Source: Parcubacteria group bacterium Greene0714_7 (lineage in GTDB: Bacteria > Patescibacteriota > Minisyncoccia > Phycocordibacterales > Phycocordibacteraceae). Taken from it: DNA of 64,000 nt. Positions 11,681 through 16,610 of this stretch are shown in pieces. Both the position numbers and the translations under genes were made by a program. Position 1 is the first letter of the stretch, and every line of letters starts with the position of its first letter. Below the pieces are notes generated by a model, which was not told where the DNA came from, ran no database searches, and was given only the letters and a program-made list of their open reading frames with translations. Location of the stretch: NCBI GenBank assembly GCA_007378985.1, contig VMHB01000003.1, positions 28,283-92,282 of the forward strand. Reading direction: 5' to 3'.

Positions 11681-11954
11681 GAGGGAAGGGAGGTAGGCGC
11701 ACGGGCTGGCTCTGGCGTAAATGCCTATTTTGGGTAGAATAGTGAGACATTCTGTGGTTAGCATTATTGCTTAGTTCCACAGAATTAAAGTTGTTTAACA
11801 ACATATTCCGCCGAGCGCATGGTTTTAAGAAAAACCATGCTTTCTCCGACGGCACTCGGACAATATGAAAGCATGCTTTCATATTGCTCCTCGCTTGTCG
11901 TAGGAGCTCAATTCTTGAGCTCCGGCGGAAACAAAGTGGGTAGAGCCCACGTAT

Positions 11955-12246
11955 TCCGCGGTAGCTCAATGGTAGAGCAGCTCCCTGTCCAAAGGCAGCC
12001 TTCCCGAGGAATCGGGATTGAAAAACGAGGTGAATTCGGGGAAACCCTAATCCTATAAAAGGATGGGCAATCCCGAGCCAAGCTCTGACGATTTGTTGGA
12101 GAAGGCGTAGAGACTATCCCGAAAGGGAGTAGGCCGAAAGGTCGAAGCGCCTCGCATCCAGATCGGATGATGATATAGTCCACGCCCTTCGTAATAGGGG
12201 ATCACGTGTAAGGAGTTGGTTGTAGGTTCGAGTCCTACCCGCGGAG
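11955..12246 (+). tRNA. tRNA-Asn(GUU) interrupted by a group I intron (intron 11989-12208). Exons are 11955-11988 and 12209-12246, and the spliced anticodon loop is CUGUUAA.
   Basis: 5' exon: acceptor TCCGCGG, D-arm GCTC/AATGGTA/GAGC, anticodon stem GCTCC, loop CTGT, then the intron. 3' exon: TAA, GGAGT, variable loop TGGTT, T-arm GTAGG-TTCGAGT-CCTAC, acceptor CCGCGGA, discriminator G. The intron has a P1 in which exon CUGU pairs with GGCAG (U35.G), GAAA tetraloops (GGGGAAACCC, TCCCGAAAGGGA, GGCCGAAAGGTC), the R element AGAGACTA, the S element GATATAGTCC, and a terminal G. Confidence 0.75.
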
Positions 12247-12254
12247 CTTGATAG

Positions 12255-12285: not shown

Positions 12286-12323
12286 ATCACTAGCACTGCG
12301 TGTGTATGGACTCGAACCGCGGG

Positions 12324-12377
12324 CCGCAGGGAGCGAAGAGCGACCGTAGGTTTCGAGCATAGCAATGCGAGAGGCGA
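12324..12377 (+). repeat. conserved element X copy A (CCGCAGGGAGCGAAGAGCGACCGTAGGTTTCGAG...GAGAGGCGA), followed by the tRNA-Asn 3'-end fragment GAGTCCTACCCGCGGAGC and a terminator
   Basis: Near-identical 34-nt core plus a similar 22-nt tail at 63026-63081. Both copies are flanked by tRNA-derived fragments. Confidence 0.5.
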
Positions 12378-12574
12378 GTCCTACCCGCGGAGCCGAGAGA
12401 GAAAATGAATCCCGCCTTGTTGGCGGGTTTTTCCTCAAGATGACTGGTCACCATTTCTCGAGAACACTTAGTATTTTACGATGAAGGAGTACAATACTTA
12501 GTGACTCGTGACCGAGTCTACCCGCGGGGCTAGGTGGATTGGTGTAATCAACTTATCTCAGTTAAAAATAATCT

Positions 12575-13579
12575 ATGAATCTTAAATACGAAATAAAGCC
12601 AGAGAACCTAAAGGTTCTTGAAATAAAACAAATAACTTTAAACAAAGATAAGTTTGGAGCGTTGACTTTTGATAAAGCATATCCAAAACTTCACGAGATC
12701 AGGAAGATGTTGGTTGAGTTCGAAGAACTTGGCTATGTTGATTTGCTTACGAGCGATGAAGTTAACGAGGTTAATAGTCTCAAGAGCCAACTACTGCATT
12801 ATGTCCAAAGAGTCAACGACTTGAATCCGGAGACAGATGCCACTTTCAACATAAATGTTAGAGATAGTTTGGAGAATGAGATAGATAACTTCTGCAAGGG
12901 TGCAACTAAACAACTTCGTGCAAACTTAGTTTTCTTAAGACAGGAGGCTGCTCGGAAGAGTACGGATCAACAATCTCTTGCTGAAGAACAAAAAGCTGCG
13001 ACTCAAGCTCGAAAACAGACGGAGGAGACGTTAAATCTACTGCAACAGAAGCTAGAGAAGCTCAACGAACGTGAACAACAGCTTGAAACTACATCAGGCA
13101 AGGTGGGTGCTAAAGCACTTGCAATTCATTTCAATACAGAGACCATTCTATATCAGGGTCGCGCGGACGGATGGTTTAAGGCTGTTGTAATTTCGTATTT
13201 ACTGTTGGTCGTGCTTACTTTAGGAATTGTGGCTTACTACACTTGGTGGCACCAAGGGGGTTGGGCAGCATTAACGTGGCAAGAAGGAACGGCAAAGTTA
13301 GCACTTCTTGCTGTCTCTTGGTACGCAGTCTCTTTCTTCATTCGTAGTTATAACGTTAATTCTCATTTGGCAGCGGTGAACCGTCACCGCACTGCCGTTG
13401 CAGGAACACTTGAAGATTTTCTAGCTTCAAATCCATCAGCTACGGGAGAAATGTTACAAAATGGAACTGATGCCATGTTTAAACACGCAGCAATAGGATT
13501 CATTACTAAGGCGGAAAAAGACTCGGGTAATCCTCTATTGGAGATTGTAAATAAGATCACAAATCCGAAACCCGATTAG
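12575..13579 (+). CDS. hypothetical coiled-coil membrane protein (N-terminal ~190-aa coiled-coil-rich region, two TM helices, C-terminal domain)
   Basis: No recognisable catalytic motif. Lower GC than flanking genes. Located in the tRNA-linked islet. Confidence 0.6.
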   Translation: MNLKYEIKPENLKVLEIKQITLNKDKFGALTFDKAYPKLHEIRKMLVEFEELGYVDLLTSDEVNEVNSLKSQLLHYVQRVNDLNPETDATFNINVRDSLENEIDNFCKGATKQLRANLVFLRQEAARKSTDQQSLAEEQKAATQARKQTEETLNLLQQKLEKLNEREQQLETTSGKVGAKALAIHFNTETILYQGRADGWFKAVVISYLLLVVLTLGIVAYYTWWHQGGWAALTWQEGTAKLALLAVSWYAVSFFIRSYNVNSHLAAVNRHRTAVAGTLEDFLASNPSATGEMLQNGTDAMFKHAAIGFITKAEKDSGNPLLEIVNKITNPKPD

Positions 13580-13672
13580 TGTTCAAACTGACCAACCTCC
13601 ACCCAAAACGTTCCGTCAAAATTTCAAAAAAATCCTTGTGGGGCTTGAAAGTAGAAAGTTCACGACCTGACT

Positions 13673-13810
13673 GGGGAGTCGAGAGAGAAAATGAATCCCG
13701 CCTTGTTGGCGGGTTTTTCATTTTTCTTGAGGCGACTGCGGGAAAGCTTTGCGCAAGAAACAAAGCCTACAAGCGGAGCATGGACCCGAAATCGGGACTG
13801 TCCCCATTTC
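13673..13810 (+). repeat. left copy of a ~130-bp repeat bracketing the R-M module (GGGGAGTCGAGAGAGAAAATGAATCCCGCCTTGTTGGCGGGTTTTT...CAAGCGGAGC...CCCGAAATCGGGACTG), which includes a terminator hairpin
   Basis: Matches 16376-16610 and, in part, 12375-12431. Confidence 0.6.
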
Positions 13811-13932: not shown

Positions 13933-15129
13933 ATGCTATCATATAGTCACAGTAAGAACATTGATGTGAACAAACAACTTTTAGTACGAAACATCCCAAC
14001 AGAGGTCGGCGACTGGATTGAGCAAGAGCGCAAGCAGCGCAATATGTCGCAACAGGAGTTTGTACTTTCAATGCTCAAAGTCGCATCAGAAGAAAAAGAA
14101 AAAACGCTTCCATTTCATACCGAGCGTCTTTTTCCGAAACCGAACGTTCCAACTACTTTTACATTTATTGACCTCTTTGCTGGGATTGGAGGTTTCAGAA
14201 TAGCTCTTGAAAAACTTGGTGGTGAATGTGTTTATACCTCTGAATGGGATAAGTATTCCCAGAAAACTTACAAGGCGTGGTTTGGAGAGATGCCTGCTGG
14301 TGACATCAGAAAAGTGAAGCCAGCAGACATTCCTAATCACGATGTATTGGCGGCTGGTTTTCCTTGTCAGCCATTTTCGCTCGCTGGAGTTTCAAAGAAA
14401 AAGAGTTTGGGTTTGGAGCACGGTTTCAAAGATAAAAATCAGGGCAATCTTTTCTTCTATCTCGCCACGATTATTCAGGCAAAAAAACCATCAGTACTTT
14501 TCTTGGAGAACGTAAAAAATCTGCAATCACACGATGGAGGTAAAACGTGGGCTGTCATAATGAACACACTGAAAGACCTTGGATATATCACATTTACTCG
14601 TGTATATGATGCAGCGCATTGGGTTCCACAGCATCGTGAGCGCATTTTTATTATCGCTTTCAAGAAGTCAATGTTTGGAGACAATCCTGATTTCACATTC
14701 CCAGAACCACCGCCACTCAAGTCAAAGCTCAAGGAGATTTTGGAGAAAAAGCCTGACACGAAGTACACACTGACAAACCATTTGTGGCAGTATTTGCAAA
14801 ACTATGCCCGGCGTCATCGGGAAAAGGGAAATGGTTTTGGTTTTGGTATTGCTGACCCGAATGGCATTACCAGAACGTTGAGCGCCCGTTATTACAAAGA
14901 TGGTTCTGAAATCCTGATTGAACAGAAGGAGGGCAAGTCACCACGCCGTCTAACACCGCAGGAGTGCGCCAAACTGATGGGTTTTCCAAAAGAGTGCAAA
15001 GTAGTAGTATCTGATACACAAGCGTACAGGCAATTTGGCAATGCGGTGGTCGTGCCAGCAGTTGAGGCAACGGCAGCCCAAATGGTCAAAACTTTCCTTG
15101 CAAAGAAAGCCAAGCGCAAAGCAAAATAA
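13933..15129 (+). CDS. DNA (cytosine-5)-methyltransferase, Dcm/M.EcoRII family, with an N-terminal ~55-aa extension that may be a regulatory HTH
   Basis: Motif I FIDLFAGIGG, motif IV GFPCQPFSLAG, motif VI ENV, motif VIII QHRER and motif X QFGNAV. Long stretches such as TRTLSARYYKDGSEILI and RRLTPQECAKLMGF closely resemble M.EcoRII/Dcm (CCWGG), as recalled from memory. Confidence 0.85.
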   Translation: MLSYSHSKNIDVNKQLLVRNIPTEVGDWIEQERKQRNMSQQEFVLSMLKVASEEKEKTLPFHTERLFPKPNVPTTFTFIDLFAGIGGFRIALEKLGGECVYTSEWDKYSQKTYKAWFGEMPAGDIRKVKPADIPNHDVLAAGFPCQPFSLAGVSKKKSLGLEHGFKDKNQGNLFFYLATIIQAKKPSVLFLENVKNLQSHDGGKTWAVIMNTLKDLGYITFTRVYDAAHWVPQHRERIFIIAFKKSMFGDNPDFTFPEPPPLKSKLKEILEKKPDTKYTLTNHLWQYLQNYARRHREKGNGFGFGIADPNGITRTLSARYYKDGSEILIEQKEGKSPRRLTPQECAKLMGFPKECKVVVSDTQAYRQFGNAVVVPAVEATAAQMVKTFLAKKAKRKAK

Positions 15130-15130
15130 A

Positions 15131-16294
15131 ATGGCATCACCACTTACCGAAAAAGCAATCAGTGAAGCGGTACAGCACGGAAACGCGCTGTTGAAGTTCA
15201 TCTCACCAAACGACACAGGTGCAACGGGAGCGCATCAATCGGGCTTTTACTTGCCTAAATCTGCTTGGGAGATTTTTACTCCTAACGGACCAACAAAAGG
15301 CGAAAACTCCAAGCATCCCGTCAATATTGAATGGCACGATGGTAGAGTCACAGAGTCAGTAGTAACTTGGTACGGTCAAGGTACTCGTTCAGAGTATCGT
15401 CTAACTCGCTTTGGTAAGGATTTTCCATTTCTTATACCTGATACAGTCGGAGACTTGTTGATGCTGGTCCCAACAAGTAGAAACGATTTCAACGCATACG
15501 TTTTTGACCAAGAAGATGACATTGAAGAAGTTATGGCTGCTTTGGGTGTACAGCCATTTGAACATTGGTCTATTTACAAAAACGGTATTGCACAAATTGA
15601 AGATACTGATGCGTGTTTGGAAAAACAATTTCAAGAGTTCGCAAAAGCGCTTGATAAGTTTCCAAAGACCGATGTGTTTTCAAACGCAACACACAAAATG
15701 CTTGAGCACTGTGTTCGTGAACTTGCAAAACAACCTTTTGATACAAAACTAATGGAGTATTACTCAACAGAATACAAACTTTTTCAGGTAGTTGAGAGAC
15801 AAATCTGCCAGACGGAAATCAGCCGACTTTTCAAGGACGTTGATGATTTTCTACACACCGCAGCAAGTATTATGAACCGACGTAAATCACGAGCAGGACA
15901 TTCGCTTGAGAACCACGTTGATAGCATATTTACCGAAGCAAATCTGGCTCACGAAATGCAACCGCGAGTAGATGGCAAACCAGACATTATCTTCCCAAGC
16001 AAAGAAGCATATTTGGACCCTTTATATCCAACAGAGAAACTCATTGTGATGGGAGTAAAAACAACTTGCAAAGATAGATGGCGACAGGTTTTGAATGAAG
16101 GTAAACGAGTCAAAGGAAAGCATATCCTTACCCTCCAACCAAGTATTTCTTCAAATCAACTAACTGAAATGTACGAAGCAGGAGTGACGCTGGTTGTGCC
16201 ACGCAAACTCCAAGCGGATTATCCGAAAGACAGCCCGCTAACCATCCTTACTGTTGAAGATTTCATTGAGCAAGCGAAGAAACTGATTGCTTAA
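15131..16294 (+). CDS. EcoRII-like type IIE restriction endonuclease (N-terminal EcoRII-N/B3-like effector domain plus a putative PD-(D/E)xK C-terminal domain)
   Basis: The N-terminus FISPNDTGATGAHQSGFYLP matches the EcoRII N-domain signature (..SANDTGATGGHQVGLYIP), as recalled from memory. The ATG lies 1 nt after the MTase stop. The C-terminal region GKPDIIFP...IVMGVKTTCK is a candidate catalytic core. The ORF-track start at 15035 overlaps the MTase gene and is probably spurious. Confidence 0.65.
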   Translation: MASPLTEKAISEAVQHGNALLKFISPNDTGATGAHQSGFYLPKSAWEIFTPNGPTKGENSKHPVNIEWHDGRVTESVVTWYGQGTRSEYRLTRFGKDFPFLIPDTVGDLLMLVPTSRNDFNAYVFDQEDDIEEVMAALGVQPFEHWSIYKNGIAQIEDTDACLEKQFQEFAKALDKFPKTDVFSNATHKMLEHCVRELAKQPFDTKLMEYYSTEYKLFQVVERQICQTEISRLFKDVDDFLHTAASIMNRRKSRAGHSLENHVDSIFTEANLAHEMQPRVDGKPDIIFPSKEAYLDPLYPTEKLIVMGVKTTCKDRWRQVLNEGKRVKGKHILTLQPSISSNQLTEMYEAGVTLVVPRKLQADYPKDSPLTILTVEDFIEQAKKLIA

Positions 16295-16350: not shown

Positions 16351-16375
16351 GTAGGTTCGAGTCCTACCCGCGGAG
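16351..16375 (+). repeat. 25-bp direct repeat of the tRNA-Asn 3' end (GTAGGTTCGAGTCCTACCCGCGGAG), the att-like right boundary of the islet
   Basis: Identical to 12222-12246. Confidence 0.7.
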
Positions 16376-16610
16376 CCGAGAGAGAAAATGAATCCCGCCT
16401 TGTTGGCGGGTTTTTCTGTGCAACTAACACGGCTTGCAAGCGGAGCATCGCCCTACATAGGGCGTTTTGTATTTTCTTAGACTGCGACCGTGGGGAAGCT
16501 TTTGTGTAGCTCAACAAAAGCTTGCAAGCGGAGCCGAGAAGTTGTCGTAGGGAAGCCATGTGCAACTAACACGGCTTGCAAGCGGAGCTAGGTCCGAAAT
16601 CGTGACTAAT
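16376..16610 (+). repeat. right copy of the ~130-bp repeat plus an array of degenerate CAAGCGGAGC-ending fragments and small hairpins
   Basis: Terminator AAAATGAATCCCGCCTTGTTGGCGGGTTTTT. TGTGCAACTAACACGGCTTGCAAGCGGAGC occurs twice (16418 and 16558). GGTCCGAAATCGTGACT matches 13787. Confidence 0.55.

Follow-up and report, generated by a model that had tools for sequence, protein, structure and literature searches.

A two-transmembrane protein family that lies beside restriction-modification genes in Candidate Phyla Radiation bacteria is a putative defence-associated membrane effector

The window analysed here is a 64,000-nucleotide stretch of DNA from Parcubacteria group bacterium Greene0714_7 (contig VMHB01000003.1, positions 28,283 to 92,282). 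It contains a 334-residue open reading frame (ORF), here called gene X, whose product, protein X, is predicted to cross the membrane twice. We conclude that X is a candidate that probably plays a defence-related role. The reading that we favour, with a probability of about 45%, is that X is a putative stand-alone, inner-membrane, defence-associated effector that travels alongside restriction-modification (R-M) systems. A stand-alone effector of the abortive-infection type is favoured by the embedding of X homologues in type I R-M operons, by the build of the protein and by its resemblance to the SLATT family. An earlier note on this DNA had proposed an undescribed defence function for gene X and had named beforehand a conserved housekeeping context of the homologues as the result that would speak against it. 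We found the opposite, an enrichment of R-M and other defence genes around the homologues.

This enrichment was observed in 26 loci from the Candidate Phyla Radiation (CPR, or Patescibacteria) with informative flanks, most of them annotated with Pfam. R-M genes lie no more than three genes from the X homologue in 16 of the 26, and even if a background rate of 15% is assumed, the probability of this count is about 8e-8. For comparison, hsdM-like genes occur at about 0.6 per CPR genome (7,391 in 12,552 genomes; bioRxiv 10.64898/2026.07.13.738296). The enrichment of X beside R-M genes is extreme. Eight of the loci are nested within type I R-M operons, with X directly after hsdM, directly before hsdS, or both. 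The arrangements in the sampled loci are as follows.

L004, L010 and L034: hsdM-X-...-hsdS-...-hsdR, with a gene between X and hsdS present or absent
L030/L031: hsdM-X-...-hsdS-...-hsdR, the order being read from two contigs
L018: hsdM-X-...-hsdS
L040: hsdM-X-...-hsdR
L046 and L047: X-hsdS-hsdR
L021: type III, a Mod and Res pair directly after X
The window: type II, a Dcm/EcoRII pair adjoining X
L023: type II, a TaqI-like system with a C protein and a LexA-fused methylase
L001: type IV, SRA-HNH and Mrr genes flanking X, the element also carrying a serine recombinase, Rep and pilins
L005, L006, L032, L037 and L038: an N6_N4 methylase adjoining X
L008: Abi_C after X
L014: a NERD/DUF5655 nuclease after X
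P0028, L016, L017, L019, L020, L029 and L043: neutral or unassigned neighbours
L044 (outside the 26 loci): a serine recombinase within the flank of about 1 kb

Spacing between hsdM and X was read wherever gene calls or ORF coordinates were available. In L004, L010, L018, L031 and L034, the start of X lies no more than 4 nucleotides from the hsdM stop or overlaps it. On a neighbour-joining tree of X, the members linked to R-M genes are spread through at least four lineages, indicating that the association with R-M genes is recurrent rather than inherited once. Several X homologues also lie inside elements with serine recombinases. A conserved partner gene was sought among unassigned neighbours of 185 to 292 residues, and none was found.

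The protein family is large. A word-indexed search returned 59 close homologues, almost all of 330 to 350 residues and, where taxonomic labels are given, almost all from CPR bacteria; protein X itself matches, at 100% identity, a hypothetical protein from Parcubacteria group bacterium Greene0714_7, which is a CPR/Patescibacteria metagenome-assembled genome. An exhaustive profile search found 3,244 representatives (of clusters at 50% identity) at E<=1e-3 and 1,817 at E<=1e-10, and among the 150 matches listed nearly all are full-length proteins of 320 to 350 residues. Since there are 59 close homologues, and some 3,200 representatives keep the full-length architecture, gene X is, on this comparative evidence, a real gene and not a chance ORF. 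A search of one genome per species across 185,579 species, which used an alignment of 18 closer sequences and stringent patterns, recovered only 10 X loci.

More distant branches retain the same layout. The sister branch, with members from Collierbacteria and Gracilibacteria, is homologous over the full length (hhalign probability 99.7%, E 1.6e-25), as is a branch that includes a Vibrio relative (100% probability, E 1.4e-41). When the window protein was compared with Pfam, NCBIfam and PHROGs, it received no family assignment and gave coiled-coil noise only, and its matches in PADLOC were limited to weak ones to SMC- and dynamin-type helices. By sequence comparison, then, X belongs to a large, coherent superfamily with a fixed architecture and with no curated family covering it.

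The ORF predicted by the earlier note is confirmed, with an ATG start on the + strand. Its parts are listed below, with the evidence for each in brackets.

12575 to 13579, + strand: gene X, encoding the two-transmembrane protein of 334 residues (ATG start, ORF call)
12575 to 12850, + strand: N-terminal helical domain, residues 1-92, with conserved F27-G28-x-L30-x-F32 (alignment A1, structural model)
12902 to 13090, + strand: heptad-periodic segment, residues 110-172 of helix 93-172 (heptad score, structural model)
13175 to 13243, + strand: predicted transmembrane helix 1, residues 201-223 (hydropathy, within helix 174-225)
13286 to 13342, + strand: predicted transmembrane helix 2, residues 238-256, with K241 (hydropathy, conservation)
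13343 to 13483, + strand: conserved, predicted cytoplasmic region after helix 2, residues 257-303, with N269-x-H271-R272 and M301-F302 (conservation, charge)

An AlphaFold (AF2) model of the monomer, built on 39 homologues and of moderate confidence (mean pLDDT 77.7, pTM 0.39), is all-helical. The two closely spaced transmembrane (TM) helices that had been proposed are borne out by Kyte-Doolittle hydropathy in 19-residue windows, which reaches 2.5 in TM1 (about residues 201-223) and 1.5 in TM2 (about residues 238-256). Both fall within long modelled helices: TM1 lies in helix 174-225 and, after a short turn, TM2 lies in helix 235-284, which would continue into the cytoplasm. The earlier proposal of a long N-terminal coiled coil holds in part. 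The model places a single 80-residue helix at residues 93-172, and heptad periodicity is present at residues 110-172 (score 0.41, with shuffles averaging 0.19; p about 0.013); at residues 93-130 it is no better than in shuffled sequences (p 0.76). Thus, residues 110-172 are a probable coiled coil, shorter than first claimed because the heptad signal is confined to that segment. Residues 1-92 appear instead to form a separate small helical domain, modelled with helices at 35-51 and 60-82 and short helices up to residue 82, and hhalign comparisons indicate that this domain is conserved across the branches of the superfamily.

The C-terminal part had been described as lacking any recognisable motif, a description that does not survive alignment of the family. 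Across the whole family, conservation peaks in the helix that follows TM2 (residues 257-284, RSYNVNSHLAAVNRHRTAVAGTLEDFLA), which carries N269-x-H271-R272. Conservation of the region after TM2 is the highest of any (0.80 in alignment A1 and 0.56 in the broad alignment A2), and that of TM2 is 0.67 in A1. Invariant or near-invariant positions are N269, H271, R272, T278 and F302, and K241, at the start of TM2, is invariant. Residues 257-303 are, as judged from the alignments, the signature of the X family. The net charge is +3 over residues 257-275 and about -1 in the loop between TM1 and TM2, a distribution that favours a topology with both termini inside and supports a cytoplasmic location for the region after TM2. 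The predicted extracellular loop, of about 14 residues, is the least conserved region. Gene X had also been called AT-rich. Its GC content is 0.415 against 0.437 for the window, and its GC content at third codon positions is 0.379, near the housekeeping range (0.33 to 0.37 in housekeeping neighbours). The composition is ordinary, and we dropped the argument that the gene is AT-rich and hence foreign.

Running from a helical head in the cytoplasm through an oligomerising helix into a TM hairpin, and on to a strongly conserved basic juxtamembrane helix, this build suggests a regulated membrane effector. In the mechanism that we propose, the N-terminal domain and the coiled coil would at rest lock the TM hairpin, together with the juxtamembrane helix, into an oligomer that is inactive. 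A cue of an infection that had escaped restriction, perhaps an anti-restriction factor or another phage product, would alter this oligomer, and the hairpins would then permeabilise or depolarise the membrane and so abort the infection. X would in this way form a second line behind the R-M system, in a role like that of PrrC but with a SLATT-like membrane effector replacing the nuclease. PrrC is an anticodon nuclease. We hold the membrane-permeabilising abortive mechanism only tentatively. A more ambitious extension is a long shot: that the X superfamily is a new class of R-M-coupled membrane effectors which use the N-terminal helical domain to sense the state of the co-resident restriction system, or anti-restriction factors of phages, and which kill or arrest the cell through the two-TM module once restriction fails. 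By analogy, this would be the PrrC principle carried out by a pore-former.

The surroundings of gene X in the window bear on how it is related to the R-M genes. It sits in a 4.1-kb islet, without an integrase, behind an intron-split tRNA. The features of this islet are as follows.

11955 to 12247, + strand: intron-split tRNA (exons 11955-11988 and 12209-12247; intron about 11989-12208)
12375 to 12433, + strand: repeat 1, upstream boundary of the X cassette (repeat D1, 100% identical to the copy at 16358)
13661 to 13719, + strand: repeat 2, its tRNA part degenerate, parting the X and R-M cassettes (D1 copy, 86% identity)
13697 to 13719, + strand: intrinsic terminator of gene X, CCCGCCTTGTTGGCGGG and a T run (terminator scan; hairpin at 13697-13713)
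13933 to 15129, + strand: Dcm-like C5 cytosine DNA methyltransferase (PF00145, 291.7 bits; PADLOC MTase_II; TIGR00675)
15131 to 16294, + strand: EcoRII-family restriction endonuclease (PF09019 EcoRII-C, 195.8 bits; PF09217 EcoRII-N, 79.8 bits)
16351 to 16416, + strand: repeat 3, a perfect tRNA T-arm and acceptor 3' half with terminator, distal end of the islet (D1/D3, 100%)

The R-M system that had been noted next door is thus a Dcm-type methylase with an EcoRII-family endonuclease, and the two are tightly coupled, the endonuclease ATG lying 2 nucleotides after the methylase stop. Gene X was likewise correctly described as a single gene with its own terminator. We considered and rejected the possibility that X and the R-M pair form a single operon here, for a terminator and a repeat lie between them; having its own terminator, X is in the window a neighbour of the R-M system and not a part of its operon.

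The three direct repeats, each consisting of a 3'-end fragment of the tRNA fused to an identical terminator, divide the islet into two cassettes, with X between repeats 1 and 2 and the R-M pair between repeats 2 and 3. The hairpin of the gene X terminator recurs in identical form at 12411 and 16394. In sequence, this arrangement resembles the outcome of successive integrations at a single tRNA site, with the integrases lost afterwards. The repeat that bounds the cassettes was searched for in the other X loci and was not found in them, indicating that it is local to this tRNA site and does not reflect mobility of the gene itself. An inverted copy of the T-arm is present at 12308-12318. Just 3' of the cassette-ending terminators, the partly palindromic motif GCTTGCAAGCGGAGC and its variants occur four times, within 13741-13786 and 16408-16595.

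The tRNA context that the earlier note had assigned to the islet is real, although hidden. ARAGORN, run on the genomic DNA, found no tRNA near gene X; a group I intron of about 220 nucleotides interrupts the anticodon loop, and the spliced 73-nucleotide tRNA folds as a cloverleaf that ARAGORN recognises. The intron is matched by Rfam RF00028 (64.6 bits, 11899-12201). That alignment fits the P3-P9 core well and puts P1/P2 on an upstream hairpin at 11899-11925, so its 5' boundary is probably wrong. A P1 pairing of CUGU with GCAG gives the canonical U.G wobble at the splice site, which favours the anticodon GUU and makes the gene most likely a tRNA-Asn(GUU). The flanks of the islet look like ordinary chromosomal genes, with DUF1003 upstream and, downstream, UPF0114 and then a predicted multi-pass membrane protein. 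Also upstream are an ORF of about 320 residues that we take, by eye, to be GlpX and one of about 337 residues that is presumably a class I aldolase.

Relatives of X also occur outside CPR bacteria. A distant relative lies on the Vibrio tubiashii plasmid NZ_CP117031 (L022, 184354-203289), in a same-strand array of single-gene cassettes. Besides the relative itself, the array encodes Hhe and a HEPN-associated protein, together with a 5'-nucleotidase, a GIY-YIG nuclease and AbiH, and it holds many hypothetical genes. The gaps between these cassettes are mostly about 100 to 200 nucleotides, as in integrons, and the array looks like a rich source of candidate defence genes. A tblastn search of 72,556 plasmids with four distant members returned a single record. 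The close family had no relative among the 2.9 million contigs of IMG/VR, and neither the close nor the distant branch had one among the 50,697 phage genomes of INPHARED. A 409-residue distant relative occupies, as prophage cargo, a position in an integrated element with the repressor on one side and the integrase on the other; near the relative in L048 are a CI-like repressor and a tyrosine integrase.

Structural comparison with an AlphaFold model had been suggested by the earlier note as a way of placing the protein. The only significant structural match to the model is an entry in BFVD, A0A8S5TVZ3, an uncharacterised 300-residue protein of Siphoviridae sp. ctQkj3 (Foldseek E 2.5e-7, 313 columns, 18% identity). 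This protein may be a phage-borne relative or a counter-defence mimic. Phage genomes are otherwise essentially without the X family, the exception being this remote structural match. The suggestion that X could be a phage superinfection-exclusion protein is not supported, the phage collections yielding no relatives and the distant branch a single case of prophage cargo.

The main rival to the effector reading has X serving the R-M enzymes, as an accessory subunit or a regulator. X would either use its long helix to tether methylase or restriction complexes to the membrane where DNA enters or regulate the alleviation of restriction, and would not itself kill. What favours this rival is the fixed hsdM-X slot together with the translational coupling: the hsdM-X-hsdS order, with stops and starts that overlap or lie 4 nucleotides apart, is stereotyped in several lineages, X is the last and overlapping gene of an N6_N4 methylase operon in L032, and of all neighbours a methylase is the one that stays most constant from one R-M type to another. 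Even so, X occurs with four mechanistically unrelated types of R-M system and also without any, making a specific protein-protein partnership unlikely. There is no conserved partner gene, the window copy is a separate transcription unit and cassette, and the Vibrio relative is a lone cassette. We regard an accessory role as unlikely, if the best placed of the alternatives.

Less likely again is a membrane barrier that acts without suicide, blocking the entry of phage or plasmid DNA as superinfection-exclusion proteins do, or stabilising or repairing the membrane in the manner of a dynamin-like stalk and paddle. Such a first-line barrier would complement R-M systems. Four of the 41 family members give weak matches to the dynamin-like LeoBC of PADLOC over the long helix and hairpin (best E 2e-5), but these fall well short of the significance that a family assignment needs, and X lacks a GTPase domain. 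Searches of solved structures gave weak matches to VAMP2/synaptobrevin, in which a coiled coil runs into a TM helix as it does in X. The full-length structural match to the siphovirus protein points the same way, but phage genomes essentially lack the family, and an outside loop that is short and the least conserved part of the protein would be unexpected in a protein that contacts the incoming phage apparatus.

That X is cargo of mobile elements, serving entry exclusion, addiction or stabilisation, and is near R-M genes because both use the same integration hotspots, appears clearly improbable. Genes for serine recombinases, Rep and pilins of type IV secretion systems lie near X in L001, L005, L017 and L044, integrase and repressor genes accompany the L048 relative, and the window copy occupies a tRNA-anchored, repeat-bounded cassette. 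The type I copies, on the other hand, are inside operons, with a recombinase close by only in L004 among annotated flanks; the embedding recurs across lineages; and the window islet lacks an integrase. It is very improbable indeed that X is an ordinary housekeeping membrane protein of CPR bacteria, for example of the envelope or division machinery, with an incidental neighbourhood, for although some copies lie beside threonyl- and phenylalanyl-tRNA synthetase genes, downstream of GyrA in L021 and downstream of a Mur ligase and a penicillin-binding protein in L017, the family has a patchy distribution (only the 10 loci of the stringent species scan) and no conserved synteny, is extremely enriched near R-M genes and has members in the defence cassette arrays of an unrelated phylum.

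Several observations weigh against the reading of X as a stand-alone effector that travels with R-M systems. About 8 of the 26 CPR loci have no recognised defence or mobile neighbour, among them one with X between the threonyl- and phenylalanyl-tRNA synthetase genes and L016, L019, L020 and L029. The sampled loci are partly related (L004 is close to L040, and L032, L037 and L038 are close to one another), and metagenome flanks were annotated only by BLAST against a reference set of neighbours already identified. CPR type I operons carry several other embedded genes besides X, and embedding is evidence of a defence neighbourhood rather than of a specific partnership. The window copy of X, with its own terminator and its own repeat-bounded cassette, is transcribed separately from the R-M pair. 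The comparison of 41 family members with PADLOC, PDC candidates included, gave one weak match to PDC-M40C (E 0.0015) and nothing consistent; matches to DUF6161, SLATT, NNH7 and LeoBC were all below family thresholds and confined to a minority of members; and searches of solved structures with the AF2 model, whose pTM is 0.39, found no related structure.

Some further features of the loci were recorded. The other genes embedded in L004, L010, L030 and L034 include those for PIN_12, DUF3644 and a 23S_rRNA_IVP four-helix-bundle protein, and the same type I operons also hold unrelated unknown proteins of 271 to 278 residues; in CPR bacteria, type I R-M operons appear to be places where accessory genes accrete. 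Proteins in which an N6_N4 DNA methylase is fused to an S24 peptidase and to the DNA-binding domain of LexA lie beside X in L006 (5397-6851, - strand) and L023 (4075-5598, - strand), in two very distant branches of X, one case adding a TaqI-like endonuclease and a C protein. Joining a methylase to a self-cleaving repressor is unusual, and might tie control of R-M to DNA damage. At 723-2136 of L006, about 5 kb from the X homologue and not adjacent to it, is the signature of a diversity-generating retroelement (bAvd with an RVT_1 reverse transcriptase).

CPR/Patescibacteria make up a large share of bacterial diversity, and very few of their defence systems have been identified, their phage biology being almost unknown (PMC12366544). 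With at least about 1,800 clusters and with members repeatedly nested in CPR R-M operons, the X family would be among the commonest non-R-M defence candidates in these bacteria. It reaches Proteobacteria, is absent from PADLOC and is named only at its fringe, as DUF6161. If X is a pore-former that guards R-M systems, it would provide a widespread layer of abortive infection for CPR/Patescibacteria, in which few defences beyond R-M are recognised; should the family show no activity in phage assays, it would serve instead as a useful warning example against guilt by embedding. The hsdM-X-hsdS slot offers a clean experimental system in which to ask whether restriction can be backed up by a membrane effector and how two-TM modules of the SLATT-like kind are activated; the DRT10 study calls this activation a central open question (bioRxiv 10.64898/2026.04.29.721553).

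Among known systems, LdgA and DdgA are antiphage genes, reportedly almost exclusive to Patescibacteria, that were obtained by functional metagenomic selection; LdgA is a single-gene defence, DdgA belongs to the multi-gene Dallas system, and neither has known homology (PMC12366544). We compared them with X by description only, TM segments being mentioned only for a different protein, SjdB (PMC12366544). Both are reported to be without homologues in other bacterial clades (PMC12366544), whereas the X superfamily reaches Vibrio. A further faint likeness is to NLR-type proteins. NNH domains form the N-terminus of antiphage bacterial NACHT proteins (bioRxiv 10.1101/2022.07.19.500537), and NNH7 (PF22738) matches residues 55-155 of 2 of 39 members at 26 bits against a cut-off of 27; RPW8, the CC-R four-helix bundle, gives a weak match in 2 of 41. 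Both signals are below threshold, and X lacks any NTPase module, NACHT included.

Among named sequence families, the closest is DUF6161 (PF19658), which is uncharacterised; for a Pseudomonadota DUF6161 family, a protein language model has predicted an antiphage function (bioRxiv 10.1101/2025.01.08.631966). A member of the sister branch, P0196, matches positions 20-214 of the 216 in the profile, over the helix, the two TM segments and the C-terminal region. Its score of 25.8 bits is under the Pfam cut-off of 27 bits, although the annotation of its source collection labels it PF19658. This branch, itself borderline DUF6161, is the one that aligns with the window family over its full length (hhalign 99.7%, E 1.6e-25). 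The window protein has no match to DUF6161 at E<=1, and 2 of the 41 members match at E<=0.1. The profile covers only about the C-terminal two thirds of X family proteins, and the N-terminal domain of X is absent from the model.

As with X, SLATT proteins (PF18181 and relatives; NF033634) combine a two-TM hairpin with a conserved cytoplasmic helical region after it, and they too are small mobile modules in defence loci. They are predicted pore-forming effectors (PMC7159879, PMC9226505) that different defence systems have recruited as effectors or accessories, one of them being the effector of DRT10. The two TM helices of X agree with the core definition of SLATT, which specifies two to three (PMC9226505). 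Pfam SLATT_1 matches 2 of 41 members (best E 2.1e-5; 17.8 bits, where shown, against a cut-off of 26.3), NCBIfam SLATT_1 also matches 2 of 41 (E 0.016), and 6 of the top 30 structural matches in BFVD are annotated SLATT proteins, with individual E-values of 0.4 to 2.1 and TM-scores of 0.23 to 0.29. In the Pfam and NCBIfam SLATT profiles, no member reaches threshold and the window protein has no match. Thus, the two-TM module of X resembles SLATT by three independent methods of sequence and model comparison, consistently but below threshold. X differs in having an N-terminal cytoplasmic extension of about 200 residues and in its partners, which are R-M systems or none, whereas those of SLATT are enzymes that generate nucleotides or cDNA (SMODS, SLOG, reverse transcriptases and RADAR); none of these four was found directly beside X in the sampled loci.

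In genomic logic, X is closest to PrrC and TgvAB, each a non-R-M component nested in an hsd operon. Neither has any relation in sequence or fold to X, a membrane protein without an enzymatic domain. TgvAB is GmrSD-like (PMC11411939). Where such nesting has been characterised, it marks a defence of a complementary or back-up kind (PMC11411939; bioRxiv 10.1101/2024.01.29.577857). Most genes that lie inside type I R-M operons serve defence, and Payne et al. validated seven such embedded systems and proposed 145 candidates (bioRxiv 10.1101/2024.01.29.577857). X is repeatedly embedded in the same way, yet it matches none of the PDC candidates catalogued in PADLOC. It also differs from the type I-embedded genes in its range, occurring with type II, III and IV systems as well.

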